Shown here: positions 27,952-61,571 of the stretch, one piece after another
How positions within the stretch are numbered: position 1 is the stretch's first letter
Layout: each line of letters opens with the position of its first letter
From: an uncultured Verrucomicrobiae bacterium
GTDB lineage: Bacteria; Verrucomicrobiota; Verrucomicrobiia; Chthoniobacterales; JAATET01
Direction: 5' to 3'
Length of the DNA stretch: 64,000 bases
Assembly: GCA_963761705.1 (NCBI GenBank)
Contig: CAVXHK010000001.1
Location: 1,283,140-1,347,139, forward strand
Made by a program: the position numbers and the translations under genes
Notes under the pieces: model-generated
Databases searched by the model: none
Told to the model about the DNA's origin: nothing
What the model saw: the letters and a program-made list of their open reading frames with translations, nothing else

Positions 27952-27956
27952 CCTTT

Positions 27957-35621: not shown

Positions 35622-35697
35622 GTTTCGGGCTTTTAACGCGTGCTTTTTGGTTGGAGCGTCGATGGGAAATCATCGCTCCTCGAAAGTGGGCGACGGG

Positions 35698-39414
<3,717 letters not shown>

Positions 39415-46941: not shown

Positions 46942-47490
46942 CTAGAATTTGCTCTCGGCGGAGGCGGTGGCGGTCGCGGACTGGACCGTCACGCCGTCGG
47001 AAAGAGTCCGGGAGCCGGACAGCTTGGCTTTGGTGGCGACTTTCTTCCCGCGGATCTTGGAAGTTGCGCGGGCGACTCCGCTGTAGGCTGGTCCGTCGCC
47101 GTCGAGACTCAGCGAACCCGCGTCTCCTTTGGCGACGTATTTGATCACCTTGCCGTTGCGTTTGACTTTGGCCTTTTTGACGTCGCCCTCTGATCGAGTG
47201 TCCAAACCATCCTCCGGGCCGCCGTGTTTGACGGGGGTCTCGGTGTTTCCGTCTTTCTTAGGAATTTTCGCTTTGCCCTGCCGGTCGAAGGATTCCTCGG
47301 TGACCGTGCCGGACGGTCCGGACGTCGTGAAGACCACGTTGGTCAGCTCCCCGTCTGCCAAACCGCCTGCCTTCCGCAGGACGCGCTTTTCGTTAACAGT
47401 GTCGGCGTGGACGAGGCCGCCCGCGAAGACACTGACTCCAACGAGGGCGGGGATGAGAAAACGGCGATTGCTGCTGGTGTGGATGCTCAT
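46942..47490 (-). CDS. secreted Lys/Gly-rich protein of unknown function
   Basis: 182 aa, taken from the 3' end of a spurious 509-aa track ORF. Signal peptide MSIHTSSNRRFLIPALVGVSVFAGGLVHA. Confidence 0.55.
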   Translation of the reverse strand: MSIHTSSNRRFLIPALVGVSVFAGGLVHADTVNEKRVLRKAGGLADGELTNVVFTTSGPSGTVTEESFDRQGKAKIPKKDGNTETPVKHGGPEDGLDTRSEGDVKKAKVKRNGKVIKYVAKGDAGSLSLDGDGPAYSGVARATSKIRGKKVATKAKLSGSRTLSDGVTVQSATATASAESKF

Positions 47491-47580: not shown

Positions 47581-49839
47581 GTGACTGGGATCTTTCATCA
47601 TTTGATCGTTCGGCCCCGGACGTGCTTGGCGATCGGGGCGCTCCTGACGCTCGCTCTCGGCTTGGGAGTCGTCCGGCTGCAGATTGATAATTCCACGAGC
47701 GGCTTGTTTTTGGACGACGATCCGGACGTTGGCTATTGGGGTGACGTGCGGGCTAATTTCGGCCCGGACCCGGATCTGTTCGTCATCGTGCGGAGCGGGG
47801 ATCTGTTTGGCGGCGGGGCGCTGGGAGCGGCGAGGGAATTGGCGGCGGCGGTGGCGGCGGTGCCCGGGGTGCGGCGGGCGGTGAGTCTTTTTAACGTCCG
47901 GACGATGCGCGAGGAGACATTCGAGGTCGGCGGGCGGAGCTACCAACGGGTCGCACCCGGAACGGTGCTGGCCCGGCTCCCGGCAACGGTTGCGGAATCG
48001 AAGCGGGTGAGGATGGAGATTCTCGGGGACTCCGTGCTGCGCGACACGTTGGTCAATGGCGCGGGTAACGCGATGGTCGTGGGGCTGGAGATCGACGTTT
48101 CGCCCGGGGGCGGATCGACCGAAGAAGCCGTCGTGGCTGCGGTGGTGGCGACGACCAAGGCGCTGACAACGACTTTGGAGGCTGCCGGGTTGGAGGTCGA
48201 AGTCTACGGGCGCGCTTTCGTCAAAGCGGCGATCACGGAGTCGATCTGGGAAAACTTGGCGCTGCTCGGGCCGGTCGCGTTGGTGGTGGTGCTGGGGATC
48301 ATCCTGGCGGCGTTTCGGTCGGTCGTCGCGATGGCGCTGCCGCTGCTGACGGGGGTGACGAGCGTGTTGGCGACGCTGGGGTTGATGGGTTATCTCGGGA
48401 TCGCGATGACGCCGATCTCTTCGACGGTCGTGGTGCTCGTCCTCGTGATCGGATGCGTGGAGGACATTCATCTGGTGGCGGGTTACGCGCGGGGGATCCG
48501 GGCCGGGCGGGAGCGGATCGAGGCCGTGCGGGCGCTCGGGGAGACGACGATCCCCGCGTCCGTGCTGGCGGTGCTCACAACGGTGCTGGGTTTCCTGGCG
48601 ATTGTCCCCAGTCCGGTTCCGCAGTTACGCGAATTTGCGGTTGCGTGCGCGGCCGGGGTGCTCATTAACTTCGTGCTCACGCTGCTGTTCGTTCCAGCGC
48701 TGTTGGGGCTGCTGCCGATCCCGCGGGCCTTTCGACGGACGAGTTCGGTCGGCGGGCGGGTGACGGAAGGCTGCGGGCGGATCCTGCGGGCTCGCGGGTG
48801 GGTGCTGGGTGGATTTGCGGTGTCGGCTGCCGTGGCGGGGTTGGGGGTCGCGCGGCTGGAAACTGACACCGATTACCTTCGGTTTTTCCCGGCGGATTCT
48901 CCCGTTAACGAGATCGCCGAACGGGTGTCGAACGACTTCGGCGGGAGCGCGGTTTTTTCGGTTGCGGTGGAGACGGAGCGGGCGGACGGGATCTACGAGT
49001 GGGAGACCTTCCGGGCGCTGAACGCGTTCAGCGGGCGGCTGGAGGAGCGGTTCGGCCACGCGCTGAGCGTGGGGGATCTGCTGCGTGAACTTCCGCGCGA
49101 TCCGCCGACGTCGCAGGCGGACTTGGACGAGCTGATTGCCTTGCTCCCTCGGTCGTTACTCTCGCCGTTTGTCGATCATGATGGCTCTCGGGCGCTGATC
49201 CGGGTGCGTTCGTCGAGCTCGGGGTCGAAGGGGATGCGATTGGACGCGGAGGCGGTGAAGGCGCTTGCCGATGAGGTTTTGCCCGCGGGGATCGAGGTGC
49301 GGATCTCGGGCGAGTTGCCGTTGCTCCACCGATTTGCGGATGAAGTTGTGGGTGGGTTGGTGCAGGGTCTGGCGCTGCTGCTGGCCGCCGTGGGGCTGGT
49401 CTTCGGGCTGGCGTTCCGTTCGTGGCGGTGCGGGGCAATCGGAGTGGTGGTCAATTTTTTCCCTTCGGTGGTGACGCTCGGCTTGATGGGTTGGATGGGT
49501 ATCCCGCTGGGGGTGGGGACATTTGCCATCGCCATCGTGGCGCTGGGGATCAGTGCCGACGACACGCTGCACTTCCTGGTGCGGCAGCGGGCGGAGCGGC
49601 GGCGGGGCGGGCCGCCGAACGGGGCTGTCGCGGTAGCCTTCGCGACGGAACTCCAACCCGTCCTCGTGACGACGGTAGCGGTGACGGTCGGGTTTCTGGT
49701 GCTCGGGCTGAGTTCGCTCGCGCTGCACCGCGAGGCAGCGGTCTTGTATGCGGTCGCGTTCGGGTCGGCGCTCGTGGCGGACTTGTTGCTATTACCCTGC
49801 CTTTTGGCGGGGCGGGATCAGTCGAGAAATTTGTCGTAG
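47581..49839 (+). CDS. MMPL/RND-superfamily lipid exporter (HpnN/MmpL-like)
   Basis: 752 aa with two 6-TM bundles, each preceded by a soluble loop. GTG start. Confidence 0.82.
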   Translation: MTGIFHHLIVRPRTCLAIGALLTLALGLGVVRLQIDNSTSGLFLDDDPDVGYWGDVRANFGPDPDLFVIVRSGDLFGGGALGAARELAAAVAAVPGVRRAVSLFNVRTMREETFEVGGRSYQRVAPGTVLARLPATVAESKRVRMEILGDSVLRDTLVNGAGNAMVVGLEIDVSPGGGSTEEAVVAAVVATTKALTTTLEAAGLEVEVYGRAFVKAAITESIWENLALLGPVALVVVLGIILAAFRSVVAMALPLLTGVTSVLATLGLMGYLGIAMTPISSTVVVLVLVIGCVEDIHLVAGYARGIRAGRERIEAVRALGETTIPASVLAVLTTVLGFLAIVPSPVPQLREFAVACAAGVLINFVLTLLFVPALLGLLPIPRAFRRTSSVGGRVTEGCGRILRARGWVLGGFAVSAAVAGLGVARLETDTDYLRFFPADSPVNEIAERVSNDFGGSAVFSVAVETERADGIYEWETFRALNAFSGRLEERFGHALSVGDLLRELPRDPPTSQADLDELIALLPRSLLSPFVDHDGSRALIRVRSSSSGSKGMRLDAEAVKALADEVLPAGIEVRISGELPLLHRFADEVVGGLVQGLALLLAAVGLVFGLAFRSWRCGAIGVVVNFFPSVVTLGLMGWMGIPLGVGTFAIAIVALGISADDTLHFLVRQRAERRRGGPPNGAVAVAFATELQPVLVTTVAVTVGFLVLGLSSLALHREAAVLYAVAFGSALVADLLLLPCLLAGRDQSRNLS

Positions 49840-50948
49840 ATGCGTTGGGTGCGGCAGTGCTTGGCTCCGAAGGCTTCGGCGAGATCGCGAGTGATCCGGT
49901 TGTCCTCGAGGATCCAGGCCAGCTCGATGGTCTGGAGGGCGGGGAAGTCGCGGCGGCGCTCCTGAATCGTGCGCAGCATGAGCGGATTGATTGGGTGCTG
50001 GCGAAACTCCGGCAGCGACCCGAGGAGGAGCACGCGGCAGCGGGTGACGCGGTGACGACCGGCGAGGAGTCGAAGTGCGCCGAGTGGACCGAGTCGTCCG
50101 TTGAGCTTGTGAAGGACCTCCGCCGGGTCCGGGACCGCGAGGAAGATCGCGGCGGGCTCGCCGAAGACGGTCACAACGTAGCCGAGCCGCTCGTCGAAAT
50201 ACGGACCCAGCTCACGCGCGGCCCGAACCAGGTCGGCGGGCAGAATGGGGAAGGCTCCCCAATTATCGTCCCATGACGCTGAGAAAACGCGGGCGAGCAA
50301 TTCCGCCTCGCGCTCGAGGCACGAGCGATCGAGCTGGCGGATCGCAACGGCGCTGCGTTTCACGTCCGCAAAGGTGCCCTCGTATTGAAATAAGGCCCGC
50401 TCCAGCGCGTCAAAGGTGAGGTGGTAGGTCAGAAGATCGCGGGCCTTGCGGTAGCCAGCGGACGTGAGGAGGTCGGCGTAGTGCGGCGGTGTGTAGCCGC
50501 TGAGTAACGACGGGCGGACGTTGGTGCCGAGGATCGTGATGCCCGCGGCGTCGTTGAGCGTGAAGCTGGTCGGGCCGCGGGCGACGGTGAGGCCGCGCTC
50601 GCGCAGCCAGCGCTCCGCCTCGGCGAGCAGGGCGTGGGCGACGCCGGGATCGTCGAGCGATTCGAAAAATCCGAAAAATCCAACGCCGTCCTGGTGGCGC
50701 GTGAGGTGGCGCTCGTTGCGGATGGCGGCGATGCGTCCGACGATCTCGCCGTCGCGGCGGGCGAGAAAAAACTCGGCGGTCGACCCGAAGCCGTCGGTGA
50801 AAAATGGTCCGCGCCGGGGGTCGATTTCGCGTCTCTGGTGCGACAAGGTCGGCGGCACCCATTGCGGGAAGTCGCGGTAGACGCGCCACGGAAATCGGAG
50901 AAATGCCCGGCGGTCCCGGTGGGTGCGAACGGGCGAGACGGTGAGCAT
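49818..50948 (-). CDS. GNAT-fold acyltransferase (376-aa family of unknown substrate)
   Basis: FLRFPWRVYRDFPQWVPP...IVGRIAAIRN...GFFGFFES. Convergent with the MMPL gene, overlapping it by 22 nt. Confidence 0.7.
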   Translation of the reverse strand: MLTVSPVRTHRDRRAFLRFPWRVYRDFPQWVPPTLSHQRREIDPRRGPFFTDGFGSTAEFFLARRDGEIVGRIAAIRNERHLTRHQDGVGFFGFFESLDDPGVAHALLAEAERWLRERGLTVARGPTSFTLNDAAGITILGTNVRPSLLSGYTPPHYADLLTSAGYRKARDLLTYHLTFDALERALFQYEGTFADVKRSAVAIRQLDRSCLEREAELLARVFSASWDDNWGAFPILPADLVRAARELGPYFDERLGYVVTVFGEPAAIFLAVPDPAEVLHKLNGRLGPLGALRLLAGRHRVTRCRVLLLGSLPEFRQHPINPLMLRTIQERRRDFPALQTIELAWILEDNRITRDLAEAFGAKHCRTQRIYDKFLD

Positions 50949-50996
50949 GCTTGGAAGGGAAGTTGACGCTGGAAGTCACTGTGTTTCGATGGGCGC

Positions 50997-52271
50997 GTGT
51001 CTGCGCGCAATCAATTATGGACGGGGATTTTGATCGGCACATCGCTTGGCATCGGGGTGACGACGCTGGTTTACCAGTCCCGCCCGAACCCGCTGGCTCC
51101 GTCTGTCGAGTCGGCGTCGCCAGAAGCGGTTGCGACCACTCTCCCGGTCGCCGGATCCGCGGAGGAGCCACTCAAACCAGTGCTTTCAAGCGTCGATCCG
51201 ACCGACCAGCGGTTGTCGTTTCGGGAGTTGCGGCGTGAGGCCGGGCGGTTGGCTTTGAGCGATCCCGAGGCGGCGCTGCGGGTGGCGATGGCGATACCCG
51301 GAACGGACAATCGCGAGGCATTTTTCGGCGAGGTCCTGCGCACTTGGGGAGAGACGGATGGACCGGGCGCGACGGCGTGGACAGCGGCAAATCTCGCGGG
51401 TGAGCAGCGCGGCGACGCCTTCTATTACATCGCCGACGGCTGGGCTGAATCCGAACCTCAAGCCGCGGCGGAGTGGTTCGCGCAGAACACGAGCGGCGTT
51501 GTGCTCGACGACGCGGCGTGGGAGATCCTCGAATCGTGGGGCCGCCAGGATCCCGAAGCGGCCGTCCGCTGGACTGAGACGCTCGACCCCTACGTGAAGC
51601 AGACCGCGATGCAGGGATTGGCCGAGGGCTGGGCAGCGGTGAGACCGGTCGCGGCGAAGGAGGCCGGCTTGCGGATGCTCGCGGCGGGCGAGCCGCACGC
51701 CGGGGAGTTTTTACAATCGGTTGCCTCGCAGTGGGGTGGTGCCGATCCGTTCGCCGCCGCTGATTGGGGCGTGACGCTGCCGGACGAACGTCTCCGCTCG
51801 GTGATCCTTGAAGAGGTCACCGACGTCTGGTCGCGGACCGACCCGCGTGCTGCAGCGACGTGGGTTGAGACCGTCGCCGATCCGGGCAGTCGACGCTTCG
51901 CCGAGGCCGGACTCGCGGCGGGATGGGGCGAGCACGATCCGGGTGCGGCGGTGGATTGGGCGTTGGAGAAGGGCACTGGCGGCGCGGAGGTCGGACCGAT
52001 CGTGAGCGATTGGGTTGAGATCGATCCGCGGGGAGCGACGCGCTGGATCGAGGAAAAGCCGCCGGGTCCGGGACGAGATGCCGCGCTCGAGGCCTTCACC
52101 GGCGCGATTATCGCCGATGAACCCCAGGCCGCCGTCGCGTGGGCCAAACAGATCGACGACCCCGCCCGCCGCCGGGCGCAGCTTGAGACGCTCACGGCGC
52201 GCTGGATTCAAGCGGACGGCGCAACGGCTGTCGAAGCGCTCCGCGAAATGAACCTGACTCCCGCCAATTGA
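50997..52271 (+). CDS. membrane-anchored helical-repeat protein (W-x-x-DP-x-AA-x-W repeats)
   Basis: 424 aa. GTG start, one N-terminal TM helix, and at least 8 repeat units. The stop overlaps the PKS TTG start (TTGA). Confidence 0.7.
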   Translation: MSARNQLWTGILIGTSLGIGVTTLVYQSRPNPLAPSVESASPEAVATTLPVAGSAEEPLKPVLSSVDPTDQRLSFRELRREAGRLALSDPEAALRVAMAIPGTDNREAFFGEVLRTWGETDGPGATAWTAANLAGEQRGDAFYYIADGWAESEPQAAAEWFAQNTSGVVLDDAAWEILESWGRQDPEAAVRWTETLDPYVKQTAMQGLAEGWAAVRPVAAKEAGLRMLAAGEPHAGEFLQSVASQWGGADPFAAADWGVTLPDERLRSVILEEVTDVWSRTDPRAAATWVETVADPGSRRFAEAGLAAGWGEHDPGAAVDWALEKGTGGAEVGPIVSDWVEIDPRGATRWIEEKPPGPGRDAALEAFTGAIIADEPQAAVAWAKQIDDPARRRAQLETLTARWIQADGATAVEALREMNLTPAN

Positions 52272-55200
52272 GTTCGCCCGCCGAGCCGCTGGCCATCGTC
52301 GGTATCTCGTGTCGGCTGCCCGGCGGGGTGGTCGACGCGGAGTCGTTCTGGGAGCTGCTGAGTGCGGGTCGCTCGGGAGTGACGGAAGTCCCGCCGGACC
52401 GCTGGAGTGCGGCGCGGTACCACTCGGCGGACGTCGCCGCGAGGGGGAAAATGGTGACACGCTGGGGAGGATTCGTGGATCAACTCGCGGAGTTCGATGC
52501 GGAATTTTTCGGCATCACGCCGCGCGAGGCTGCGCGGATGGACCCGCAGCAGCGTTGGTTGCTCGAGCTGGCCTGGGAGGCGCTCGAGGACGGCCTGGTT
52601 CCTCCCGCCACGTTGAGTGACTCGACGACGGGCGTGTTCGTTGGGCTGTCGAACAGCGACTACGGGCAGATCCAGCAGAAATTCGTGGAGCGGATCGACG
52701 GTTACACAAACAGCGGGAACTCGTTGAGCATCGCGGCGAACCGCATCTCGTATCAGTTCGACCTGCGCGGCCCGTCTGTCGCCGTCGACACCGCGTGTTC
52801 GTCGGGTCTCGTCGCCGTGAGTATGGCGTGCCAGCAGATCTGGTCGGGCGCGTGCGAGGCCGCGCTGGTTGGCGCGGCGAGCGTGATCATTCTGCCCGAT
52901 GGATCACTTGGTTTCAGCAAGGCTTCGATGCTGTCGCCTACGGGCCGGTGCGCCGCGTTCGACGCCCGCGCAGACGGTTACGTGCGGAGCGAGGGCGCGG
53001 GAATGATCTTCCTCAAACCCCTGGCGCGCGCCCTGGCGGACGGCAATCCCGTGCGAGCGGTGATCCGCTCGTGCGTGGTGAATCAGGACGGACGGACGTC
53101 GTCCATGACCGTGCCGCGACTCGATTCGCAACGCGAATTGGTTGAGGCCGCGCTCGCTGCAGCCGGCGTCGCGTCGGATCGCGTCGGCTACGTCGAGGCG
53201 CATGGCACCGGCACGCCGGTCGGCGATCCCATTGAGGCGCGGGCGCTCGGCGCGGCGCTTTCGCCGGGCCGGGCGCCCGACGCGCCGTGTCTCATCGGCT
53301 CGGCGAAGTCGAATCTTGGCCACCTCGAGACCGCCGCCGGCCTCGCGGGCATCATCAAGGCGGCGCTCGTCCTCGAGCATCGGCGGGTCCCGCCGAGCCT
53401 CCATTTTTCGATCCCGAACCCGCACATTCCCTTCGACGAGTTGCGGCTCCGGGTCGCGACGGAGATGACCGATCTGCCGGTCGGTGAAGACGGTCGGGCC
53501 TTTGTCGCGGTGAATTCCTTTGGCTTCGGCGGGACGAACGCCCACGCGCTGCTCGAGGCGGCGCCCCCGTTCGAGCCACCCCCATCGGTCGAGATCGTGC
53601 GACCGCTTCTCGTCCCGGTCTCGGCGAGATCTCCGGCGGCGCTCGCCGAGCAGGAGATTTGGCTGCGCGATCGCATCGCCGAGTCGCCGGGCGAGGTCGC
53701 CGTCGCCGCCGCCACCGGGCGCGACCACCTCGAGCACCGGTCGGTTCTCGGAGGGGACGGCGAGGGCAAGATCGCCACCGGGCGAGCGGCGGTCGGAGCT
53801 GACGCGCGACCGGTCTTTGTTTTCACCGGTCAGGGCGTGCAGTGGTGTGCGATGGGGCAGGGCTTGCTGGAGCGCGAACCGGTTTTTCGCGAAGCGGTGC
53901 TGGAAATCGACGTTCGTTTGCAAGGAATCTCGCTGCTCGACGAGTTGAGGAAGGCCGAGGCAGCGTCGCGGATCCACGACACTGAGGTCGCGCAACCCGC
54001 TCTATTCGCCGTGCAGGTTGGCCTCGTAGCGTTGTGGGCATCTTGGGGCGTGCGGCCCGCCGCGGTCGTCGGACACAGTGTCGGCGAGGTGGCCGCCGCG
54101 CACGCCGTCGGGATCCTCTCGCTCGACGATGCCGTGGCTCTTGTCCGCCACCGGAGTCGATTGCAGGGGACGACCGGCGGTCGGGGGCGGATGGTGGTCG
54201 TGGGGCTGTCCGAGGAGCAGGCCCACGCGCGCCTCGTCGAAGGCGTGGAGATCGCCGCGATCAACGGGCCAAGCTTGATCACGCTGGCGGGCGACACGCG
54301 ACCGCTCGAAGCGGTCGTTGGCGGGGTCGAGACCGACGGAATTTTTGTCCGTTGGCTCCCGATCGATTACGCTTTTCACACCCACCAGATGGACCCGATC
54401 GCGGACGAATTGCGGGTCGCGCTGCGTGATCTCGAGCCCCGTGATGCCTCCGTTCCGTTCGTCTCGACGGTCGATGGGCGCGAGTTGCCGGGCGCCGCGC
54501 TCGACGCCGAATACTGGTGGCGGAACGTCCGCGAGCCGGTGCGGTTCGGTGCCGTCATCGAAGCGCTGGTCGCAGAGGGACGGCGAACGTTTCTCGAGAT
54601 CGGTCCGCACCCGGCGCTCGCTTCGGCGATCCGCGAGGGCTGCGCGGCTCGGGGCGTGAGCGGGCACATTCTGCATTCGCTGCGGCGTGAGACCGACGAT
54701 TCGACCGAGCTGGCGCGGAATCTCGCCGGGCTGCACGTTGTTGGCGCGGACGTCGACTGGCGGGCCTATCTGCCGAAGGTTGCCGGGCCGCGGGTTCGGC
54801 TGCCGCTCTACGCGTGGCAGCGCAAGTCGTTTTGGCAGGAAGCCCCGGAGGCGCGGCGGCAGCGGGTCGGGGACTTGGTTCATCCGTTGCTCGGAATACC
54901 GGTGGCCGGGCCGGCGGCGCGGTGGGAGTTTTTGCTCGATCCGCGGAGCTTTCCCTACCTGAGCGATCATCAATTCTGGCAGCGGATCGTCTTCCCCGCG
55001 GCGGGGCACATCGAGATCGGGTTGGCCGTCGGTCGGGCGCAATTTCCCGACGTGGTTTTCGCATTGGAGGAGATCGAGATCCGGCGCGTCCTTTTCGTCT
55101 CGACCGGATACCCGCCGACGATTCGGGTGGAATTTGACGCCGACGATCGCCGCTACCGCGTCTTCGGCAAACGGATCGACGACGAGACGTGGACGCTTCA

Positions 55201-58200
55201 CGCCACGGGCCGGGTGGTCCCGCAACCCGCGACGCCGCGCCCGCCGGTGGCGCTCGGCCCGATCCGTAACTCTCTGCCGAAACACTCGGCGCACTGGGAT
55301 TGTTACGAGCGGTTTCGGGGCGATGGGTATGACTTTGGTCCGGCTTTTCAACGGATCGAGCAGGTCTGGCACGGGCCGAATGAATCCCTGGCCGAAGTCA
55401 TCGCTCGCCCCACTTTGGTGTCGGACGGATATCACTTCCATCCGGTGCTCATTGACTCGGGCTTTCAAGCGTTGCTTGCCGCCGCCGGGGGGGGCGCCGA
55501 CCCGGATCGGGGGGGGCATTTTTTGCCCGCTGTGATCGGACGATTCGAATTCGATGCCGCCGAGCCGCCGCGGCGATTCTGGATTCACGCCCGGATCACC
55601 GCGACGGCGAAGGAGCGGATGAGCGGTGAGTTGCAATTCCTCGATGGCGAGGGGATGCCGTTCGGCCGCATCGTCGGAATCGAATTGAACTGGGTGCGCG
55701 GTCAATCGGAGTCGGCGACCGCCGGCGATTGTTTCTACTCGTTGGAATGGGAGGATGCCCCCGAGTTGGTTGAAGTGGCGGAGAGGCCGCGGGTGCGGCT
55801 GGTCGACGATCGCGGTGGCGTGGCCGAGCGGCTCGCCGCGGAGCTGGGGGCGCGCGGAGTCGTCGTGACGCGGGGCGCGATCGGCGAGCCCGACGACGAC
55901 ACGGTGATCGTCGACCTGTCGGCGCTGGATCATCCGGCGGACGCCGCACTGGACGCGACCCGTCTCGGGGAGGCGCAGGCAACGGGTGTCAACGGGCTGC
56001 TCAACGTCGCGCGGACGCTGCAAAGCCGAGAGATGACCGGGCGCGTCTGGTGCGTCGCCGGGTGCTCGGCGGCGGGGGTCGCGCGGCTCGCGTCCGCGCC
56101 AGTGATCGGATTCTTGCGGGTAGCGGCGAACGAATTGCCCAGCGTCGCGTGGACCCTCGCGCTGCTGGAATCGACGGACGACCTCCCGGCGCTCGCGGAT
56201 CGGATCCTGGCGGGCGGCGGGGAGAGCGAGGTTGCGTTTTTTTGCGGACGGACGCACGTGCGGCGGCTGCGACGCGTTCGCGAGACCGACCTACTGCGGC
56301 GGACGCGTAGCGCCGATAAGTTGGTGCCCTTTCGACTTGAGAACGAGCGGCCCGGCACGCTCGAGCGGCTCGTCGTGAACGAGACCGCCCGGTGCGAACT
56401 GGCCCCGGACGAAGTCGAAGTCCGGGTCCAAGCGGCCGGCATCAATTTCCGAGATCTGATGAAGTTGCTCGGTGTCTACCCCGGTGAGTGGGGTGAAAAC
56501 GAACGGCTGGGCGATGACTTTGCCGGGGTCGTGCTCGGCGTCGGTGTTGGCGTGACCGATCTCCGCGCGGGAGACGAGGTGGTGGGGATGGCGGAGAAGT
56601 GCTTTCAGTCGCACGTCGTCGCGAATCGTGGGTTGGTCTTTCGCAAGCCGGCGGCGCTCTCCTTCGCGGAGGCGGCTTCGTTGCCGACTGTCTTCCTGAC
56701 TGCGCACCACGCGCTGGTGGAGGTCGGGAGGCTGCGGGCGGGTGAGTCGATTCTCATTCACGCGGCGGCGGGCGGGGTCGGGTTGGCGGCGATTCAGGTC
56801 GCGCGCCGGTTGGGACTCGAGATTTTCGCGACTGCGGGGTCGCCGGAGAAGCGGAAGTTGCTGCGCGGACTCGGGATCGCGCACGTGTTGGATTCGCGAT
56901 CTTTGGCGTTCGCGGAGGAGATCCCGCGAATCACGGGCGGGCGTGGCGTCGACGCGGTGCTCAATTCGTTGTCGGGCGAATTCATCCCGAAAAGTCTGTC
57001 CGTCCTCGCGCCGTTCGGGCGGTTTCTGGAGATCGGGAAGGTCGACATTTTTGCGAGGCGGATGCTTGGCCTCCACGCGCTGCGGAACAACGCGACCTAC
57101 GCGGTGATCGACGTCGGCCAACTCCTCGCCGAGCGGCCCGAAGGCGCGGGTGGGTTGATCGAAGAGCTGGGCCGTGCGTTCACCGACGGCGTCTACCGGC
57201 CCAATCCGGTGCGGGTTTTCCCGGTGGGCGACGCGGCGGAGGCCTTCCGCGAGATGTCGCGCGGCGGGCACGTCGGCAAGCTGGTTCTGGATTTTTCGCC
57301 GGAGGATCTTGTGGTCGGGAGGACGAATGACTTCGGGCGATCGGGTGCGATCCTCATCTCCGGCGGCGCTCGGGGCATGGGCTTTGAGGTCGCGAAATGG
57401 CTGGCGCAAAACGGCGCGCGCAACCTCGCGCTCCTGAGCCGAAGCGGTCCGGGTGACGACGCGGTGCGGGCAGGCATCGAAGGGATGCAGGCCGAGGGCG
57501 TGGGGGTCGCCGACCTGCGCGTGGACGTGACCGACGCCAACGCGGTCGCGGAAGCCGTCCGCGAGGTCGAAGCGACGATGGGTCCGATCGTCGGCGTCGT
57601 CCACGCGGCGATGGCGCTCGACGATCGATTTATCGCGGACTTCGATGAGGCGTCCTTCTCGTCGGCGCTCGATCCGAAGATGCTCGGGGCTTGGAATCTG
57701 CACGCCGCCACGTCGCACCGGGAGCTGGAGTTTTTCGTGGGATTCTCGTCGTTCTCGGCCGTGGTGGGTTCGATCCGGCAGGCAAATTACGCGGCGGGTA
57801 ACGCATTCCTCGACGAGCTCGCGCGCCACCGCCGCTCGCTTGGCCTGGCGGCACTCTCGGTCAATTGGGGGGCAATCGTCGGAGCGGGCTTCGTGCAGCG
57901 AAACGAAAAGACGCGCACCTACCTTGAGTCCATCGGCATCGAGCCGTTCTCAGTCGATGAGGCGATGAATCTGCTCGAACGATTGCTCACGAGGGACGTT
58001 GCGGGCATCACGGCGGCACGAGTGGATTGGGCGTCGTTGCTGCGGCTGCTGCCGGGGTTGGGTCGCAGGAATCTCTACTCGCCGGTGACGGAAGTGATCG
58101 GCCGCGGCGGCGCTGGCGGCTCGATGCGGGCGCTCATTTTGGCCGTCCCGGCGGATCAGCAGCGGAGGCTGATTGAGGACCTCATCGCCCGGGAAGTCGC

Positions 58201-58423
58201 GGCGGTCTTCGGCGCGGACGGAAGCTCGCTGGATCGGGAGACGCCGGTCAGCCAGCTCGGGTTGGACTCGATCATGGCCATCGAACTTCTCAACCGGATC
58301 GAGGGCGAGCTGGGAATCGCTTTTCCCATGGGGAGCGTGCTCAACGGCCCGTCGATCCAGCAACTCGCCGGGCCGGTGCTCGCGGCCCTGCGCGACTCGG
58401 AGCAGCCCGAGGTCGAGGGATGA
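52268..58423 (+). CDS. type I polyketide synthase, single fully reducing module KS-AT-DH-ER-KR-ACP
   Basis: Approximate domain coordinates and motifs: KS ~52283-53560 (DTACSSGL, HGTGT, NLGH). AT ~53810-54790 (GHSVGE, YAFHT). DH ~54875-55700 (HPLLG..P, LIDSGFQ). Structural psiKR ~55720-56300. ER ~56330-57295 (HAAAGGVG). KR ~57345-57900 (GGARGMG, LDD, YAAGN). ACP ~58170-58390 (LGLDSI). No TE or R domain. Confidence 0.95.
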   Translation: MSSPAEPLAIVGISCRLPGGVVDAESFWELLSAGRSGVTEVPPDRWSAARYHSADVAARGKMVTRWGGFVDQLAEFDAEFFGITPREAARMDPQQRWLLELAWEALEDGLVPPATLSDSTTGVFVGLSNSDYGQIQQKFVERIDGYTNSGNSLSIAANRISYQFDLRGPSVAVDTACSSGLVAVSMACQQIWSGACEAALVGAASVIILPDGSLGFSKASMLSPTGRCAAFDARADGYVRSEGAGMIFLKPLARALADGNPVRAVIRSCVVNQDGRTSSMTVPRLDSQRELVEAALAAAGVASDRVGYVEAHGTGTPVGDPIEARALGAALSPGRAPDAPCLIGSAKSNLGHLETAAGLAGIIKAALVLEHRRVPPSLHFSIPNPHIPFDELRLRVATEMTDLPVGEDGRAFVAVNSFGFGGTNAHALLEAAPPFEPPPSVEIVRPLLVPVSARSPAALAEQEIWLRDRIAESPGEVAVAAATGRDHLEHRSVLGGDGEGKIATGRAAVGADARPVFVFTGQGVQWCAMGQGLLEREPVFREAVLEIDVRLQGISLLDELRKAEAASRIHDTEVAQPALFAVQVGLVALWASWGVRPAAVVGHSVGEVAAAHAVGILSLDDAVALVRHRSRLQGTTGGRGRMVVVGLSEEQAHARLVEGVEIAAINGPSLITLAGDTRPLEAVVGGVETDGIFVRWLPIDYAFHTHQMDPIADELRVALRDLEPRDASVPFVSTVDGRELPGAALDAEYWWRNVREPVRFGAVIEALVAEGRRTFLEIGPHPALASAIREGCAARGVSGHILHSLRRETDDSTELARNLAGLHVVGADVDWRAYLPKVAGPRVRLPLYAWQRKSFWQEAPEARRQRVGDLVHPLLGIPVAGPAARWEFLLDPRSFPYLSDHQFWQRIVFPAAGHIEIGLAVGRAQFPDVVFALEEIEIRRVLFVSTGYPPTIRVEFDADDRRYRVFGKRIDDETWTLHATGRVVPQPATPRPPVALGPIRNSLPKHSAHWDCYERFRGDGYDFGPAFQRIEQVWHGPNESLAEVIARPTLVSDGYHFHPVLIDSGFQALLAAAGGGADPDRGGHFLPAVIGRFEFDAAEPPRRFWIHARITATAKERMSGELQFLDGEGMPFGRIVGIELNWVRGQSESATAGDCFYSLEWEDAPELVEVAERPRVRLVDDRGGVAERLAAELGARGVVVTRGAIGEPDDDTVIVDLSALDHPADAALDATRLGEAQATGVNGLLNVARTLQSREMTGRVWCVAGCSAAGVARLASAPVIGFLRVAANELPSVAWTLALLESTDDLPALADRILAGGGESEVAFFCGRTHVRRLRRVRETDLLRRTRSADKLVPFRLENERPGTLERLVVNETARCELAPDEVEVRVQAAGINFRDLMKLLGVYPGEWGENERLGDDFAGVVLGVGVGVTDLRAGDEVVGMAEKCFQSHVVANRGLVFRKPAALSFAEAASLPTVFLTAHHALVEVGRLRAGESILIHAAAGGVGLAAIQVARRLGLEIFATAGSPEKRKLLRGLGIAHVLDSRSLAFAEEIPRITGGRGVDAVLNSLSGEFIPKSLSVLAPFGRFLEIGKVDIFARRMLGLHALRNNATYAVIDVGQLLAERPEGAGGLIEELGRAFTDGVYRPNPVRVFPVGDAAEAFREMSRGGHVGKLVLDFSPEDLVVGRTNDFGRSGAILISGGARGMGFEVAKWLAQNGARNLALLSRSGPGDDAVRAGIEGMQAEGVGVADLRVDVTDANAVAEAVREVEATMGPIVGVVHAAMALDDRFIADFDEASFSSALDPKMLGAWNLHAATSHRELEFFVGFSSFSAVVGSIRQANYAAGNAFLDELARHRRSLGLAALSVNWGAIVGAGFVQRNEKTRTYLESIGIEPFSVDEAMNLLERLLTRDVAGITAARVDWASLLRLLPGLGRRNLYSPVTEVIGRGGAGGSMRALILAVPADQQRRLIEDLIAREVAAVFGADGSSLDRETPVSQLGLDSIMAIELLNRIEGELGIAFPMGSVLNGPSIQQLAGPVLAALRDSEQPEVEG

Positions 58424-59388
58424 TGTCGACCACGCTCGTCACCGGAGCGACTGGGCTGCTCGGCAACAACGTCGTCCGCGCCCTCCTCGGGCGCGGAGCA
58501 TCCGTGCGCGTTCTGGTGCGCGATCGTGCCGACCCGCGTCCGCTCGCCGGACTGGACGTCGAGGTCCGCCGGGGTGACGTGCGGGATGCGGCGGCGGTGG
58601 AGGCGGCGTGTCGGGGTGCGGAGGTCGTGGTCCACGCGGCGGCGAAGGTCGGGATCGGTAGCGTCGGATTGGCGAGCTATCGCGAGGTCAACGTGGGAGG
58701 AACGGAGAACGTCCGTCGCGCCGTCATGCGGCACGGGAGTCGCCTCATTCACGTGTCGACGTCGGACACCGTCGCGAGCTCCGCGCACGGCGAACCGGCG
58801 GACGAGACCGCGTCGTTCGACGCGACGCACACCACGGCCTACAGCGTGAGTAAATGGGAAGCGGAGGCCTTGGCCGCAGATGCGGTGATCGTGAACCCGG
58901 GATTCTTGCTGGGACCGTGGGATTGGAAACCGTCCTCCGGGCGGATGCTACTGGCGATCTCCCGCGGCCAGGGATTGCTCGCGCCGCGCGGCCACGGAAG
59001 CTTTGTCGATGCGCGGGACGTGGCGGCGGCGATCCTCGCCGCGGCGGAGCGAGGGCGGGCGGGGCAACGTTATTTGTTGACGGGCGAACGACTTGCCTGG
59101 GTGGACGCGTGGAGTTTGTTTGCGGATGTGACCGGCGGTCGCGCGCCTCGGGGCCGGGTCTGGCCGCTGGCCGCGTGGATCGGCGGTCGGTCGGGCGACC
59201 TCATCGCGAAATTCACCGGGCGGGAGCCGGATGTGAATTCCGCCGCGTTGCGGTCGGCTCTCCGTCCGTCACGATTTTCGAGTCGCCTCGCCGAGGAGGA
59301 GCTGGGATTCCGTCGCCGCCCGTTGCGGGAGACGGTGGTGGACGCGTGGGCGTGGTTCGAGGCGCGGGCGAAAAATCAGCGCCAGTAG
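58420..59388 (+). CDS. NAD(P)-dependent SDR of the epimerase/dehydratase-reductase fold
   Basis: 322 aa; VTGATGLLGNNVV Rossmann motif and YSVSK catalytic pair. The ATG overlaps the PKS stop (ATGA). Confidence 0.85.
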   Translation: MMSTTLVTGATGLLGNNVVRALLGRGASVRVLVRDRADPRPLAGLDVEVRRGDVRDAAAVEAACRGAEVVVHAAAKVGIGSVGLASYREVNVGGTENVRRAVMRHGSRLIHVSTSDTVASSAHGEPADETASFDATHTTAYSVSKWEAEALAADAVIVNPGFLLGPWDWKPSSGRMLLAISRGQGLLAPRGHGSFVDARDVAAAILAAAERGRAGQRYLLTGERLAWVDAWSLFADVTGGRAPRGRVWPLAAWIGGRSGDLIAKFTGREPDVNSAALRSALRPSRFSSRLAEEELGFRRRPLRETVVDAWAWFEARAKNQRQ

Positions 59389-59792
59389 CCGCCACGGTAG
59401 TAGCCACGACCGCCCCGGGTGTAGTAGCGGCTGGGGTAGTAGCTGACGCCGACGCGGGGGCGATTCACGTAGCGACCGCGGCGCCAATTCCAGTTGTTGC
59501 CCGACCAAGCGTAGTGGCCCTGGACGTAGACGGGGTCGCGGTAGCCCGCCGGGATCACGGTGGGGCGCTGCTCGTAGATCGGGCGAGGGCGGGGTTGGGT
59601 GACGACAATTTCGCGGGGTTCGTTGTATTCGTAGTAGTAATTATCGTCGTAGCCGGGGTCGTTGCGGATGGCTCCGAAGATGGCGCGACCGATCGGATCG
59701 GGTGGGGTGAATTGGCCGCGCGAGTTCACGCAGCTTGTGAGCGTCAGTGCGGCGGTGCCCGCGGCGAGGAGGAGGGCGATGTGGATTTTCAT
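59376..59792 (-). CDS. lipoprotein rich in Tyr/Trp/Arg/Gly (YxWGxW-like repeats)
   Basis: Trimmed to ATG 59792. Lipobox LTLTSC. The C-terminus is ...YYTRGGRGYYRGGYWR. Confidence 0.6.
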   Translation of the reverse strand: MKIHIALLLAAGTAALTLTSCVNSRGQFTPPDPIGRAIFGAIRNDPGYDDNYYYEYNEPREIVVTQPRPRPIYEQRPTVIPAGYRDPVYVQGHYAWSGNNWNWRRGRYVNRPRVGVSYYPSRYYTRGGRGYYRGGYWR

Positions 59793-59857
59793 GATGGGCG
59801 ACAGGTTGGTTGCGAACGGAATTGCCGTGCGTGGCAAAAGCGTGCAGTCAATAGAGC

Positions 59858-60037
59858 ATGGAAACCGAGCCGCTCCCACCGTCCTTTTCAAAAACCTACC
59901 TCATTTTCATCGTCATCGGTGCATTGTTGTTCGTCGGGATTTTCGTGGGATTTGCGGTGTTGGGTGACGACGTCCCATCGACGCCGGGTGACACCGAAGA
60001 ACTGCAACAGCCCGCGGGTGAGCGCCTCGACCAGTGA
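59858..60037 (+). CDS. 59-aa single-TM protein, translationally coupled to the NYN-LOTUS gene
   Basis: METEPLPPSFSKTYLIFIVIGALLFVGIFVGFAVLGDD... The stop overlaps the GTG at 60034 (GTGA). Below the track length cutoff. Confidence 0.4.
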   Translation: METEPLPPSFSKTYLIFIVIGALLFVGIFVGFAVLGDDVPSTPGDTEELQQPAGERLDQ

Positions 60038-60843
60038 GCGACTCCGACGCCACGATGGCGGTGTTTTTGGATCTCGAAAACATTGCGCTCGGCGCACGGG
60101 ACGCAAATTTCCCCCGCTTCGACATCCAGCTGGTGATGACGCGGCTGCTCCTGCGCGGGCACATCGTGGTAAAGAAAGCCTACTGCGACTTCGAGCGGTA
60201 TCGGGAGTTCAAGCGGGACTTGCACGAGGCCGCGTTCGAGCTGATCGAGATTCCGCACATCCGGCAGTCGGGCAAAAATAGCGCCGACATTCGCATGGTC
60301 GTCGACGCGCTCGACCTCTGCTACACGAAGCCGCACTTGGACACGTTCGTGGTGCTGAGCGGCGACTCGGACTTCTCGCCGCTGGTCAGTAAGCTGCGGG
60401 AAAACGCGAAAACGGTCGTCGGCGTCGGGGTGAAGAGTTCCAGCTCGGACCTGTTCATCAACAATTGCGATGAGTTCATTTACTACGATGATCTCGTGCG
60501 GGAGCGGCCGGTGAAAAAGACGTCGCGGCCCGCGCGGAAGCCGCCCGAGTCGAAAGAGAATGGGGCTGCGGTCGAGGCGACGCCGGGCAAAGGTCCGACG
60601 CTCGAGCAGGCGCTCGACCAGCTGGCGGCGACGCTTGAAGCTCTCGTTGAGGAGCGGGGCGATGACATCATCTGGGCGTCCATGATCAAGCCAGCGATGA
60701 AGCGGCGCAATCCCGGCTTCAACGAGCGGGCGCACGGGTTTCGTTCCTTCAACGATCTGCTCAAAGCGGCGGAGAAAGAGGGCATCGTCGCGCTCGAGCG
60801 CAACGAGAAGCTCGGACAATACAGCGTGCGCCCGGTCGAGTAG
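60034..60843 (+). CDS. NYN (LabA/DUF88, PIN-like) domain protein with C-terminal OST-HTH/LOTUS domain
   Basis: Contains AVFLDLENIALG, VVLSGDSDFSPLVSKLRE and a C-terminal IIWASMIKPAMKRRNPGFNERAHGFRSFNDLLKAAEKEG. Alternative ATG at 60055. Confidence 0.88.
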   Translation: MSDSDATMAVFLDLENIALGARDANFPRFDIQLVMTRLLLRGHIVVKKAYCDFERYREFKRDLHEAAFELIEIPHIRQSGKNSADIRMVVDALDLCYTKPHLDTFVVLSGDSDFSPLVSKLRENAKTVVGVGVKSSSSDLFINNCDEFIYYDDLVRERPVKKTSRPARKPPESKENGAAVEATPGKGPTLEQALDQLAATLEALVEERGDDIIWASMIKPAMKRRNPGFNERAHGFRSFNDLLKAAEKEGIVALERNEKLGQYSVRPVE

Positions 60844-60849
60844 TCGGGG
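60793..60849 (+). repeat. direct repeat copy 1 (authentic 3' end of the NYN-LOTUS gene)
   Basis: CTCGAGCGCAACGAGAAGCTCGGACAATACAGCGTGCGCCCGGTCGAGTAGTCGGGG, matched at about 85 percent by 61499..61556. Confidence 0.7.
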
Positions 60850-61498: not shown

Positions 61499-61556
61499 CT
61501 CGAGAGCGCAGCGAGAAGTTTGGGCAATGCGGCGTGCGCCCGGTCGAGTCGTCGGG
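61499..61556 (+). repeat. direct repeat copy 2 (decayed duplicate of the NYN-LOTUS 3' end)
   Basis: CTCGAGAGCGCAGCGAGAAGTTTGGGCAATGCGGCGTGCGCCCGGTCGAGTCGTCGGG. It has one extra base relative to copy 1 and has lost the stop codon. Confidence 0.7.
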
Positions 61557-61571
61557 TAGGATTTTCGCTCG

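Follow-up and report, generated by a model that had tools for sequence, protein, structure and literature searches.

A fully reducing polyketide synthase paired with a bacterial ceramide synthase-family acyltransferase in a probable sphingolipid-type gene cluster

To our knowledge, SgaAB is the only characterised system in which a polyketide synthase (PKS) serves sphingolipid synthesis. The mycobacterial MAS/Pks2 loci for PDIM and sulfolipid-1 combine an iterative KS-AT-DH-ER-KR-ACP synthase with PapA and MmpL, and the sulfolipid-1 locus also has a sulfotransferase. Characterised bacterial ceramide synthase (bCerS) takes acyl-CoA and is not known to use acyl-ACP. SgaAB(C) from P. fluorescens MYb115 has a monomodular type I PKS for a sphingolipid-type lipid with very long chains, and SgaB is a demonstrated SPT (PMC12134224). 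In sphingolipid producers, spt is often unlinked from bcerS (PMC11334938), and in Myxococcus an MmpL gene was reported to adjoin spt (bioRxiv 10.64898/2026.04.12.717747). Here we analysed a 64-kb stretch of DNA (the window) on a 2,144,686-bp contig, whose host is a PVC bacterium, probably of the verrucomicrobial branch. The window holds a cluster that we read as a form of bacterial sphingolipid synthesis, akin to PKS-derived sphingolipids. Given the bCerS-family membership of its acyltransferase, its most likely product is an exported, sphingolipid-like lipid of the envelope with a fatty chain from a dedicated PKS. A description of a PKS paired with a bCerS homologue was not found in the searchable literature.

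A sequence-only reading of this DNA had listed five genes with intact motifs and two start-stop overlaps, and the ORF check of the window and the sequence confirmed all of these at the same coordinates (Table 1). Coding-type GC3 is 0.76-0.82 across the cluster ORFs. The TTG start of the PKS gene overlaps the stop of the repeat-protein gene (aaTTGAg, 52268-52271), and the ATG start of the SDR gene overlaps the PKS stop (gATGAtg, 58420-58423). The acyltransferase gene is read in the other direction, so that it converges on the MMPL gene, with 22 nt shared by the two 3' ends, and diverges from the repeat-protein gene. The sixth gene, for a small secreted protein, was masked by a spurious 509-aa ORF and had been missed in the earlier reading. 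The layout differs from those of hgl, ols, pfa and PDIM, as that reading had stated.

Table 1. Genes of the cluster in the 64-kb window
Feature	Length	Position	Strand	Basis
Small secreted protein	182 aa	46942..47490	-	Sixth conserved cluster gene
RND-superfamily MMPL/HAE3 lipid exporter (predicted), 12 TM	752 aa	47581..49839	+	Pfam, NCBIfam, hydropathy
Tandem-GNAT N-acyltransferase, bCerS/YghO family	376 aa	49818..50948	-	Fold, homology, synteny
Membrane-anchored repeat protein	424 aa	50997..52271	+	Hydropathy, repeats, orthologues
Single-module fully reducing type I PKS	2051 aa	52268..58423	+	Pfam domains, motifs
Extended SDR	322 aa	58420..59388	+	Pfam, NCBIfam, GxxGxxG + YxxxK

The PKS operon had been called an orphan. 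However, the same gene set recurs in related contigs, and contigs of equal length in three protein searches tie a PKS and/or an alpha-oxoamine synthase (AOS) to a bCerS homologue in about 10 cases. The metagenome contigs of the relatives are probably verrucomicrobial or planctomycetal. Every one of the six loci that show enough of their surroundings (the window, L082, L083, L084, L086 and L095) has the PKS, the bCerS homologue and the small secreted protein. The bCerS homologue is the most constant partner of the PKS; the SDR, MMPL and repeat-protein genes are variable. L082, L083, L084 and L095 encode a FAAL-ACP-AOS fusion, of which the AOS, Spt-like by sequence, is beside the same acyltransferase. 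In the E. coli sphingolipid locus FAAL and Spt are separate proteins; the fusion proteins share 34-35% identity with them, and 50-58% in their AOS domain with the AOS encoded after SgaA-like PKSs. No AOS/Spt, FAAL-ACP-AOS fusion or sulfotransferase is present within the whole 64-kb window, and the claim that the pathway is self-contained did not survive this comparison with the relatives. Among the best 120 homologues, no cluster-type FAAL-ACP-AOS came from the contig of the window. L089 also combines a bCerS homologue with a PKS of this architecture, one from a branch of its own, and the two genes are accompanied by a glycosyltransferase and an MsbA-like ABC exporter.

The AlphaFold2 model of the 376-aa acyltransferase has a pLDDT of 90.2. 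Its top Foldseek matches are tandem GNATs (2wpw, 7q3a and MshD), and the structural neighbours include MshD, a glucosamine N-acetyltransferase and a histidine acetyltransferase crystallised with N-myristoyl-histidine. Over the full length, the enzyme is 28-37% identical (E 1e-55 to 1e-75) to the acyltransferases of sphingolipid loci from E. coli (YghO), Sphingomonas, Roseomonas, Streptomyces and Rubrobacter, and 23 invariant residues are common to all of them. The E. coli locus contains lptF/lptG, AOS, ACP, epimerase, FAAL and yghO genes. The Roseomonas homologue adjoins LptF/G paralogues, as in Caulobacter; this type of locus has been described (bioRxiv 10.64898/2026.04.12.717747; PMC9393093). 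The Streptomyces and Rubrobacter homologues are in AOS-GNAT-SDR operons. Opitutales homologues directly after an AOS gene are 41-42% identical to the window enzyme; these isolate loci also contain MIPS, PAP2_3 and a classical SDR and, in Rariglobus only, a CDP-alcohol phosphatidyltransferase. Homologues of 36-42% identity directly follow AOS genes in L090, L091, L101 and L102, and PKS-linked homologues are 50-65% identical. Because of this homology and synteny, we assign the acyltransferase to the bCerS/YghO family as a PKS-linked subclade, an assignment built on synteny-defined homologues. The sequence-only reading had correctly recognised a GNAT acyltransferase but treated it as an add-on that perhaps acylates the product; this does not fit an enzyme of the bCerS family that is the most constant partner of the PKS. 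Membership of this family assigns the cluster to sphingolipid-type metabolism, a context absent from the earlier reading.

The cluster thus shares with canonical sphingolipid loci (PMC9393093, PMC11087976, PMC10865984) a full-length homologue of their N-acyltransferase and an extended SDR, and its sister clusters have FAAL, ACP and Spt-like AOS, fused in one protein. In contrast to these loci, the constant partner of the acyltransferase is a 2051-aa fully reducing PKS, an MMPL/HAE3 RND pump and two novel accessory proteins take the place of LptF2/G2 export, and most relatives carry a sulfotransferase. Moreover, the window has no Spt, ACP or FAAL genes, and its SDR is not clearly a CerR orthologue.

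The PKS consists of KS (6-380 aa), AT (516-828), DH (872-1147), ER (1380-1674), KR (1693-1870) and ACP (1972-2034) domains, and Pfam found no TE, R or C domain after the ACP, in agreement with the earlier reading. The motifs of KS and AT (DTACSS, EAHGTGT, NLGH, GHSVGE and YAFH) and of ER, KR and ACP (HAAAGGVG, GGARGMG, YAAGN and GLDSI) are intact; the DH has HxxxxxxxxP and DSGFQ, in which position +4 is Gln instead of the usual Gly. The domain order is MAS-like, as proposed before; full-length mycocerosic acid synthase is the best solved-structure match (987 bits), and Pks2 is the second-best NCBIfam model, although all NCBIfam equivalog scores are far under their cutoffs. On its sequence, the PKS is MAS-like with an AT of the malonyl type (YAFH), and we infer that it acts iteratively and makes a long chain. 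Orthologues in the related clusters have the same architecture and 50-54% identity.

Like the MAS/Pks2 loci, the cluster combines a TE-less PKS of the same domain order with a putative trans-acting release acyltransferase and an MmpL-type exporter, and its relatives add a sulfotransferase; the view of a conserved cluster of envelope-lipid type, with a MAS-like fully reducing PKS at its centre and an RND/MMPL exporter, is upheld. However, the AT motif of MAS/Pks2 is of the methylmalonyl type (YASH), their release enzyme is the condensation-domain-like PapA rather than a bCerS-family tandem GNAT, and the FadD loader is not in the window. The SgaA-like PKSs are about 40% identical to the window PKS but longer (about 2470-2620 aa), and a neighbour-joining tree based on the KS-AT region separates them from the bCerS-linked PKSs, which group in a single clade. 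In Sga clusters, the AOS gene is directly after the PKS gene, no bCerS homologue is present and the reductase is a classical KDSR-type SDR, whereas the PKS of the present cluster has a ceramide synthase homologue as its partner, with no AOS in the window and, in relatives, an AOS fused to FAAL-ACP.

The SDR has the GxxGxxG and YxxxK motifs and matches the Pfam families Epimerase (91 bits) and 3Beta_HSD (74 bits) and, partially, NAD_binding_4. With NCBIfam, it scores 206 bits against HpnA, under the cutoff of that model, and 53 bits against the thioester-reductase (TR) model, the cutoff of which is 213. Hydropathy revealed no TM segment or signal peptide, consistent with a cytoplasmic enzyme. 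The SDRs of L082 and L084 are 55% identical to it, CerR-position SDRs of the E. coli, Streptomyces and Rubrobacter sphingolipid operons 28-34%, and HpnA about 35%. Because it is of the same extended-SDR type and in the same operon position as the CerR-position SDRs, we propose that it may be a 3-ketoreductase in the CerR/KDSR role. Against this role, its similarity to HpnA equals that to the CerR-position SDRs, and of the four sister clusters that are visible in full, two (L083 and L095) have no SDR.

We give about an even chance to the following sphingolipid-branch route. The malonyl-specific, fully reducing PKS would use its own ACP to build an acyl chain that is long, straight and saturated, and the bCerS homologue would then attach this chain to a long-chain base at the amino group. 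This base would be 3-ketosphinganine-like and come from an Spt-type AOS, encoded beyond the window in this organism. The SDR would reduce the 3-keto group, the HAE3/MMPL pump would move the ceramide-like lipid to the outer envelope, and the repeat protein and the small secreted protein would probably assist transport. The product would be sulfated in most sister clusters; the window cluster has no sulfotransferase. We infer the acyl-ACP donor, the acceptor, the SDR role and the direction of transport. Off-loading probably falls to the bCerS homologue because the PKS lacks any release domain and because no other acyl-transferring partner is visible in the window, L086 (where the contig ends inside the PKS) or L089. 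The FAAL-ACP-AOS fusion argues for a FAAL to ACP to AOS channel of its own, so that the PKS chain would be left to the bCerS homologue. The MmpL gene beside spt in Myxococcus is in line with this route. Against it, the window has no AOS/Spt, no cluster-type FAAL-ACP-AOS from its contig is among the best 120 homologues, and the donor of characterised bCerS is acyl-CoA.

A possible but rather unlikely alternative is that the PKS chain becomes the long-chain base: an Spt-like AOS, encoded elsewhere in this organism and as a domain of the fusion in sister clusters, would condense acyl-(PKS)ACP with serine or alanine, the SDR would reduce the 3-keto group, and the bCerS homologue would add an ordinary chain from acyl-CoA or acyl-ACP. 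SgaA, an iterative PKS, and SgaB make C24-C28 sphinganines in this way (PMC12134224), and this feeding of the AOS, not an N-acyltransferase, speaks against off-loading by the bCerS homologue. At least 16 proteobacterial loci have a PKS gene immediately followed by an AOS gene of the 50-58% identity given above, and FAAL-ACP didomains commonly prime PKSs (PMC11837247), as the sister FAAL-ACP would do. However, tight linkage of PKS and bCerS homologue holds in the window and L089, where no AOS is visible (L086 also shows none, its downstream side being unseen), no bCerS homologue was found within 10 kb of Sga-type clusters, and the bCerS-linked PKSs form their separate clade. Furthermore, the fusion mirrors the one-unit ACP-synthetase/ACP/Spt trio of the Caulobacter and E. 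coli loci (PMC9393093).

It is still less probable that the GNAT off-loads the PKS chain onto another amine (an amino acid, amino sugar or polyamine), to give a non-sphingoid N-acyl lipid that the SDR modifies at the head group or chain and the MMPL protein exports. The lack of an AOS in the window, the structural neighbours acting on amino sugars and amino acids, and the glycosyltransferase and ABC exporter of L089 agree with it. The distance of the PKS-linked subclade from canonical bCerS (28-37% identity) does so too and, with the 41-42% to Opitutales members, weakens the bCerS off-loading model. Nevertheless, Spt-like AOS adjoins the same acyltransferase in four sister clusters, homologues directly follow AOS genes in the four loci named above, and unlinked spt is common among sphingolipid producers. 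The sequence-only reading had the SDR cleave the ACP thioester reductively, to give a fatty aldehyde or alcohol that is perhaps acylated and is exported by the MMPL protein. We regard this as very improbable: L083 and L095 keep PKS, acyltransferase and small protein without the SDR, the SDR resembles HpnA far more than the TR model, and the acyltransferase family is one of N-acyltransferases tied to alpha-oxoamine synthases, not O-acyltransferases. The start-stop overlap of SDR and PKS genes, the partial NAD_binding_4 and TR matches, cinnamoyl-CoA reductases among the distant structural relatives of the SDR, and the fused TR domains of many PVC homologues of the PKS are consistent with such release.

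The exporter matches Pfam MMPL in two stretches (105.9 bits) and Sterol-sensing (48 bits), and NCBIfam HAE3 at 216.8 bits, under the cutoff; HpnN matches are weaker. Its 1+5/1+5 hydropathy pattern corresponds to the 12 TM segments claimed earlier. Orthologues lie among the same genes in L084 (33% identity) and L086 (55%). The repeat protein (413 aa by the start of the collection's gene call) has one N-terminal TM segment and about eight repeats of about 32 aa with a DPxxAxxW-type motif. It matched no Pfam or NCBIfam family, and its orthologues (L084, 40% identity; L086, 56%) are found only in MMPL-carrying clusters. The small protein, the start codon of which was read in the sequence, is Lys-rich, with an N-terminal hydrophobic segment, a Sec-type signal peptide and a conserved C-terminal Phe. 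It has no Pfam or NCBIfam match, belongs to no described family and is 37-49% identical to an approximately 178-aa PKS neighbour in L082, L083, L084, L086 and L095. Only 29 representatives were present among 1.84 billion proteins searched, and by this distribution the small protein is cluster-specific.

The six-frame ORF list and its translations confirmed all five genes that the sequence-only reading had placed in the PKS cluster, each with a coding-type GC3 (0.76-0.82). The TTGA overlap between the repeat-protein stop and the PKS start, and the ATGA overlap between the PKS stop and the SDR start, can be read straight from the sequence. A conserved cluster gene was overlooked in that reading: it encodes a 182-aa secreted protein, runs divergently from the MMPL gene and lies inside a spurious 509-aa ORF. 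The genes that flank the cluster are housekeeping genes unrelated to it, namely RarA/MgsA, an M29 peptidase, CNNM and a hexapeptide acetyltransferase upstream, and an NYN-domain protein, rhamnose mutarotase and DUF456 downstream. The ribosomal-protein/SecY operon, MetH and TamA/TamB are located farther upstream.

Coordinates of cluster genes, other window features and segments of the compared loci
Feature	Sequence	Coordinates	Strand	Basis or remark
Ribosomal protein superoperon (L2, S3, L5, S8, SecY, Map)	window	1-13300		at the start of the window
tRNA-Phe	window	27879-27953		Rfam
TamA (Omp85)/TamB pair and MetH	window	29824-39414	-	12-22 kb upstream of the cluster
Small secreted protein, 182 aa	window	46942-47490	-	
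MMPL gene	window	47581-49839	+	six-frame ORF list and translation
Acyltransferase ("GNAT"), 376 aa	window	49818-50948	-	six-frame ORF list and translation
Repeat protein, 424 aa	window	50997-52271	+	six-frame ORF list and translation
PKS, 2051 aa	window	52268-58423	+	six-frame ORF list and translation
SDR, 322 aa	window	58420-59388	+	six-frame ORF list and translation
ORF, 171 aa	window	59376-59891	-	13-nt overlap with SDR stop
PKS/acyltransferase-homologue locus	L089	768-10881		third layout
Sphingolipid-type genes	L090	3053-11807		outer-membrane biogenesis neighbourhood
Locus with acyltransferase homologue after AOS	L101	8727-10004		Verrucomicrobia bacterium IMCC26134
Locus with acyltransferase homologue after AOS	L102	6012-9950		Rariglobus hedericola

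Pfam finds KS, AT, DH, ER, KR and ACP domains in the PKS, forming one module, with nothing C-terminal of the ACP and no release domain. All catalytic motifs are there, as had been claimed, with one deviation: the DH motif HxxxGxxxxP has Gln in place of the usual Gly. The top PDB sequence match is full-length mycocerosic acid synthase (MAS; 987 bits), and the single KS-AT-DH-ER-KR-ACP module without a release domain is shared with MAS-like iterative PKSs. In AT motifs, Phe marks malonyl specificity, and the YASH type marks methylmalonyl-CoA specificity. MAS has a YASH-type methylmalonyl AT, whereas the motif of the window PKS is YAFH (Y/HAFH across orthologues). Because this motif is of the malonyl type, the predicted product is expected to be a straight chain. 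That the PKS consists of one module, and that its gene neighbours are of a lipid type, suggests that the module may be used iteratively.

The 376-aa acyltransferase carries a Pfam Acetyltransf_1 match of 26.7 bits. A PDB sequence search gave no match for it; the informative comparison was by fold. For an AlphaFold2 model derived from 40 homologues (pLDDT 90.2, pTM 0.88), the top Foldseek matches are tandem-GNAT proteins (probability 1.00, TM 0.54-0.60). The nearest PDB folds are the tandem-GNAT N-acyltransferases: clavulanate tandem GNAT, MAB_4324, MshD and glucosamine N-acetyltransferase. Thus, the modelled fold is that of a GNAT-type acyl-CoA N-acyltransferase. Aligned over about 99% of its length, the protein shares 28-37% identity with E. 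coli YghO and with homologues from Sphingomonas, Roseomonas, Streptomyces and Rubrobacter (E 1e-55 to 1e-75), and 23 residues are invariant across 13 aligned sequences.

The gene neighbourhoods of these homologues are informative. In E. coli, yghO lies with lptF, lptG, AOS (alpha-oxoamine synthase), ACP, epimerase and fatty acyl-AMP ligase genes. The Sphingomonas parapaucimobilis locus encodes an NAD(P)H-binding protein, ACP, AOS, LptF, LptG, a desaturase and the N-acetyltransferase. Streptomyces and Rubrobacter have three-gene operons of AOS, GNAT and NAD-dependent epimerase. Beside the Roseomonas homologues are LptF/G paralogues, sterol-desaturase-family and acylglycerol-kinase-family genes and a CDP-alcohol phosphatidyltransferase. 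These loci match the published sphingolipid locus of Caulobacter, in which the bacterial ceramide synthase gene (bcerS, CCNA_01212) is beside lptG2/lptF2 (01213/01214) and is accompanied by spt 01220, acp 01221, cerR 01222 and acps 01223 (PMC9393093; bioRxiv 10.64898/2026.04.12.717747).

Among distant homologues, an AOS association is seen in L090, L091 and L097-L102. In L090 and L091 the homologue (36% identity) directly follows an Spt-like AOS, and the Opitutales homologues of L101 and L102 (41-42%) also directly follow an AOS. Sequence comparison therefore strongly supports membership of the bCerS/YghO family, the placement being made through synteny-defined homologues rather than the characterised enzymes CCNA_01212 of Caulobacter or BF9343_4218 of B. 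fragilis. The enzyme may act as a ceramide synthase, N-acylating a sphingoid base. Within the family, the PKS-linked acyltransferases form their own subclade (mutual identity 45-65%). NCBIfam gave no match for the window protein or for the L090 homologue beside the Spt-like AOS, and apparently holds no model recognising this acyltransferase family.

Several of these distant loci have further features. L090 has, one after another, BamA, two Skp/OmpH genes, a glycosyltransferase, the Spt-like AOS, the bCerS homologue and a HAD phosphatase, so that sphingolipid-type genes sit within an outer-membrane biogenesis neighbourhood. The Opitutales loci, which are from cultured bacteria, also encode myo-inositol-phosphate synthase, PAP2_3, a classical SDR and a MacB-type exporter, and that of Rariglobus has a CDP-alcohol phosphatidyltransferase; they look like inositol-phosphoceramide-type loci. 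The Rariglobus AOS is a 1312-aa KS-ACP-(DH)-AOS fusion.

The cluster had been called an orphan, and a GTDB species-representative scan with the PKS, taken alone, pointed that way. The PKSs of its 80 loci are at most 48% identical to that of the window, neither the GNAT nor the repeat protein is matched in any of the loci, and the window's neighbours are otherwise absent save for weak, scattered MMPL or SDR matches in six. A 5.8-billion-protein collection overturned this idea: it contains PKSs that share the domain layout, are 50-54% identical and have the same partners on their contigs. We therefore rejected the orphan status. A metagenome scan with the GNAT gave five loci only. Of the related clusters, the closest is L086, which has a PKS N-terminus 70% identical to that of the window and the window's gene order, with a Sulfotransfer_3 gene added between the acyltransferase and MMPL genes. 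L084 encodes repeat protein, MMPL, PKS, SDR, small protein and acyltransferase, then a 1105-aa FAAL-ACP-aminotransferase (FAAL-ACP-AOS). L082 has PKS, SDR, small protein, sulfotransferase, acyltransferase and FAAL-ACP-aminotransferase, and L083 and L095 have the same set minus the SDR.

All six loci, including the window, share the PKS, the acyltransferase (56-65% identity) and the small secreted protein. The SDR and the MMPL gene with the repeat-protein gene are variable, as are the sulfotransferase and FAAL-ACP-AOS. When contigs are matched by length across three protein searches, the PKS/acyltransferase/AOS linkage reaches about ten contigs. Those relatives that have a name are MAGs of Verrucomicrobiae and Verrucomicrobiales, and L082 and L084 also bear genes characteristic of PVC bacteria (PSCyt/PSD1/DUF1501). 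FAAL-ACP-AOS is present in L082, L083, L084 and L095; the window has the SDR and no AOS within its 64 kb. Neither FAAL-ACP-AOS nor sulfotransferase was found in the window by tblastn, which speaks against a self-contained pathway. Among the best 120 FAAL-ACP-AOS homologues, none is on a contig with the length of the window's own (2,144,686 bp), a negative that is not conclusive.

In a neighbour-joining tree of the KS-AT region (no bootstrap support), the PKSs linked to bCerS homologues fall into a single clade apart from SgaA-like PKSs, and its sister group consists of other PVC PKSs with C, TR, TE or MT domains. The PKS of L089 is also paired with a bCerS homologue but branches elsewhere, so the two genes may have come together on more than one occasion. 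L089 has a third layout: a bCerS homologue (49% identical), a 2115-aa KS-AT-DH-ER-KR-ACP PKS, an MsbA-like ABC exporter and a DXD glycosyltransferase.

The accessory proteins were classified by profile searches. The MMPL protein matches Pfam MMPL in two stretches (105.9 bits, cutoff 20.5) and NCBIfam HAE3 with 216.8 bits, which is under the subfamily cutoff of 351.9. Its MMPL domains, two large loops and 12 TM segments, whose 1+5/1+5 hydropathy pattern bears out the RND-type topology read earlier, identify it as a predicted MMPL/HAE3 RND transporter. In the related loci, the repeat protein is found only where the MMPL gene is found. The small secreted protein belongs to a rare family (29 representatives among 1.84 billion proteins) with no described domain, and a single-sequence AlphaFold model of it was unusable (pLDDT 38). 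The sister FAAL-ACP-AOS fuses into one chain what E. coli and Caulobacter encode as three proteins, and is 34-35% identical to E. coli FAAL and Spt; a FAAL review describes no such fusion.

Because the PKS has no release domain and its sole universal enzymatic partner is a ceramide-synthase-family N-acyltransferase, the most economical reading is that the acyltransferase takes the chain from the PKS and transfers it to the amino group of a long-chain base. The self-contained FAAL-to-ACP-to-AOS protein would supply this base in the sister clusters. In the window organism it would be made by an Spt-type enzyme whose gene is not linked to the cluster; genomes in which spt and bcerS lie apart have been documented (PMC11334938). 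Reduction of the 3-keto group would fall to the SDR and export of the lipid to the RND pump, with sulfate added in relatives. We give this full mechanism an even chance, with donor, acceptor and chain length all inferred. Release of the chain by the SDR as proposed earlier is very improbable. The SDR is missing from L083 and L095, and it scores poorly as a thioester reductase: TIGR01746 gives 52.7 bits against a cutoff of 213.35, over residues 4-164 only, the Pfam NAD_binding_4 match (49.8 bits) is partial, and neither model matches the full length. Instead, the protein is a cytoplasmic extended SDR (Epimerase/3Beta_HSD/HpnA-like) without an adh_short-type match in Pfam or NCBIfam. Its scores are 205.7 bits for HpnA, 161 for SdmB, 72 for OleD and 53 for thioester reductase. 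CerR, the bacterial ceramide reductase, is an NDUFA9-like extended SDR. The window SDR shares 28-34% identity with the proteins that occupy the CerR position in the sphingolipid operons of E. coli, Streptomyces and Rubrobacter, and about 35% with proteins annotated as HpnA. Therefore, the earlier interpretation is supported only in part: its reductive release is weakened, and its orphan and self-contained character did not hold.

The PKS chain may alternatively pass to an AOS and itself become the base. In P. fluorescens, SgaB is a demonstrated SPT, and SgaA and SgaB produce C24-C28 sphinganines (PMC12134224). In at least 16 of the 80 GTDB PKS loci (among L040-L076; Bordetella, Pararobbsia, Stellaceae, Marinobacterium and others), the PKS of about 2500 aa is followed, roughly 300 nt downstream, by an AOS; these are SgaAB-type clusters as in P. 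fluorescens MYb115. The AOS domain of the sister clusters is 50-58% identical to the AOS directly after the SgaA-like PKSs in these proteobacterial loci, and a dedicated type I PKS is common to the SgaAB(C) cluster and the window. However, the SgaAB type has its AOS beside the PKS, whereas the window has none and the related AOS of the sister clusters is fused to FAAL-ACP, two to three genes away from the PKS. The window PKS is about 37-42% identical to the PKSs followed by SgaB-like AOS (SgaA itself was not in the comparison), is 400-550 aa shorter and falls in a different clade. SgaC is a classical KDSR-type SDR, unlike the extended SDR of the window, and no bCerS homologue was found within 10 kb of the SgaAB-type PKS-AOS loci. 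We consider this routing unlikely, though worth keeping in view. A non-sphingoid amine acceptor for the acyltransferase seems improbable. Among the nearest known systems is also the canonical Spt/bCerS/CerR pathway, which has the acyltransferase family in common with the window.

In logic only, the cluster also resembles the mycobacterial MAS/Pks2, PapA and MmpL loci, which combine a PKS lacking a TE with an acyltransferase that acts in trans and an exporter of the MmpL type; the window has no PapA. The Spt, bCerS and CerR steps of bacterial sphingolipid synthesis were elucidated only in 2021-2022, and a PKS route to sphingoid bases was not reported until 2024-2025. We found no paper describing a PKS-bCerS cluster in the searchable library, and a conserved pairing of a PKS with a ceramide synthase homologue would, judging from these comparisons, be new within known bacterial and PKS-linked sphingolipid synthesis. 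If conserved, the pairing of an iterative PKS with such a homologue would add a third layout, with a PKS chain that is probably amide-linked, and sphingolipid-type envelope lipids would extend to poorly studied Verrucomicrobia and Planctomycetes. The MMPL/HAE3 pump, the repeat protein and the rare secreted protein are candidates for sphingolipid export, to our knowledge an open question in the field.

The cluster family is also a testable candidate for environmental ceramides with extremely long, sulfated acyl chains that lack known producers or genes. For the C32-C39 sulfated (1-deoxy)ceramides of the Black Sea, a specific producer has not been identified (PMC11334938), and the clusters with sulfotransferase and Spt fusion could underlie them. 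On the boldest reading, which we consider unlikely, the cluster family would define a new mode of chain ending: its ceramide-synthase-family tandem GNAT would act in trans to free the chain from an iterative PKS that lacks a TE and would, with the sister sulfotransferase and FAAL-ACP-Spt, be the missing genetic basis of ceramides and 1-deoxyceramides whose C32-C39 fatty-acyl chains bear sulfate. If so, the PKS would be a dedicated very-long-chain N-acyl synthase for ceramides, and the window a sulfotransferase-less, Spt-unlinked version in a verrucomicrobial-type genome.

Other features of the window were also recorded. The 171-aa ORF that overlaps the SDR stop has a coding-type GC3 (0.80), and an internal Met yields MKIHIALLLAAGTAALTLTSC, a lipobox-like signal, then a Tyr/Arg/Gly-rich tail. 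It has no Pfam match and no counterpart beside the related clusters; therefore, it is probably outside the pathway. Rfam gave no match in the window beyond the tRNA-Phe, and a search for promoters and terminators did no better than chance. The low GC of the first 13 kb raised the idea of an island, which was rejected because the lower GC and purine richness of these 13300 nt are due to the ribosomal-protein/SecY operon. The plus-strand GC skew is unusually high over window positions 14000-50000 (+0.2 to +0.38 in 2-kb windows) regardless of gene orientation, and falls to +0.07 to +0.16 over the PKS cluster (50000-62000). This drop could reflect recent acquisition or PKS composition.
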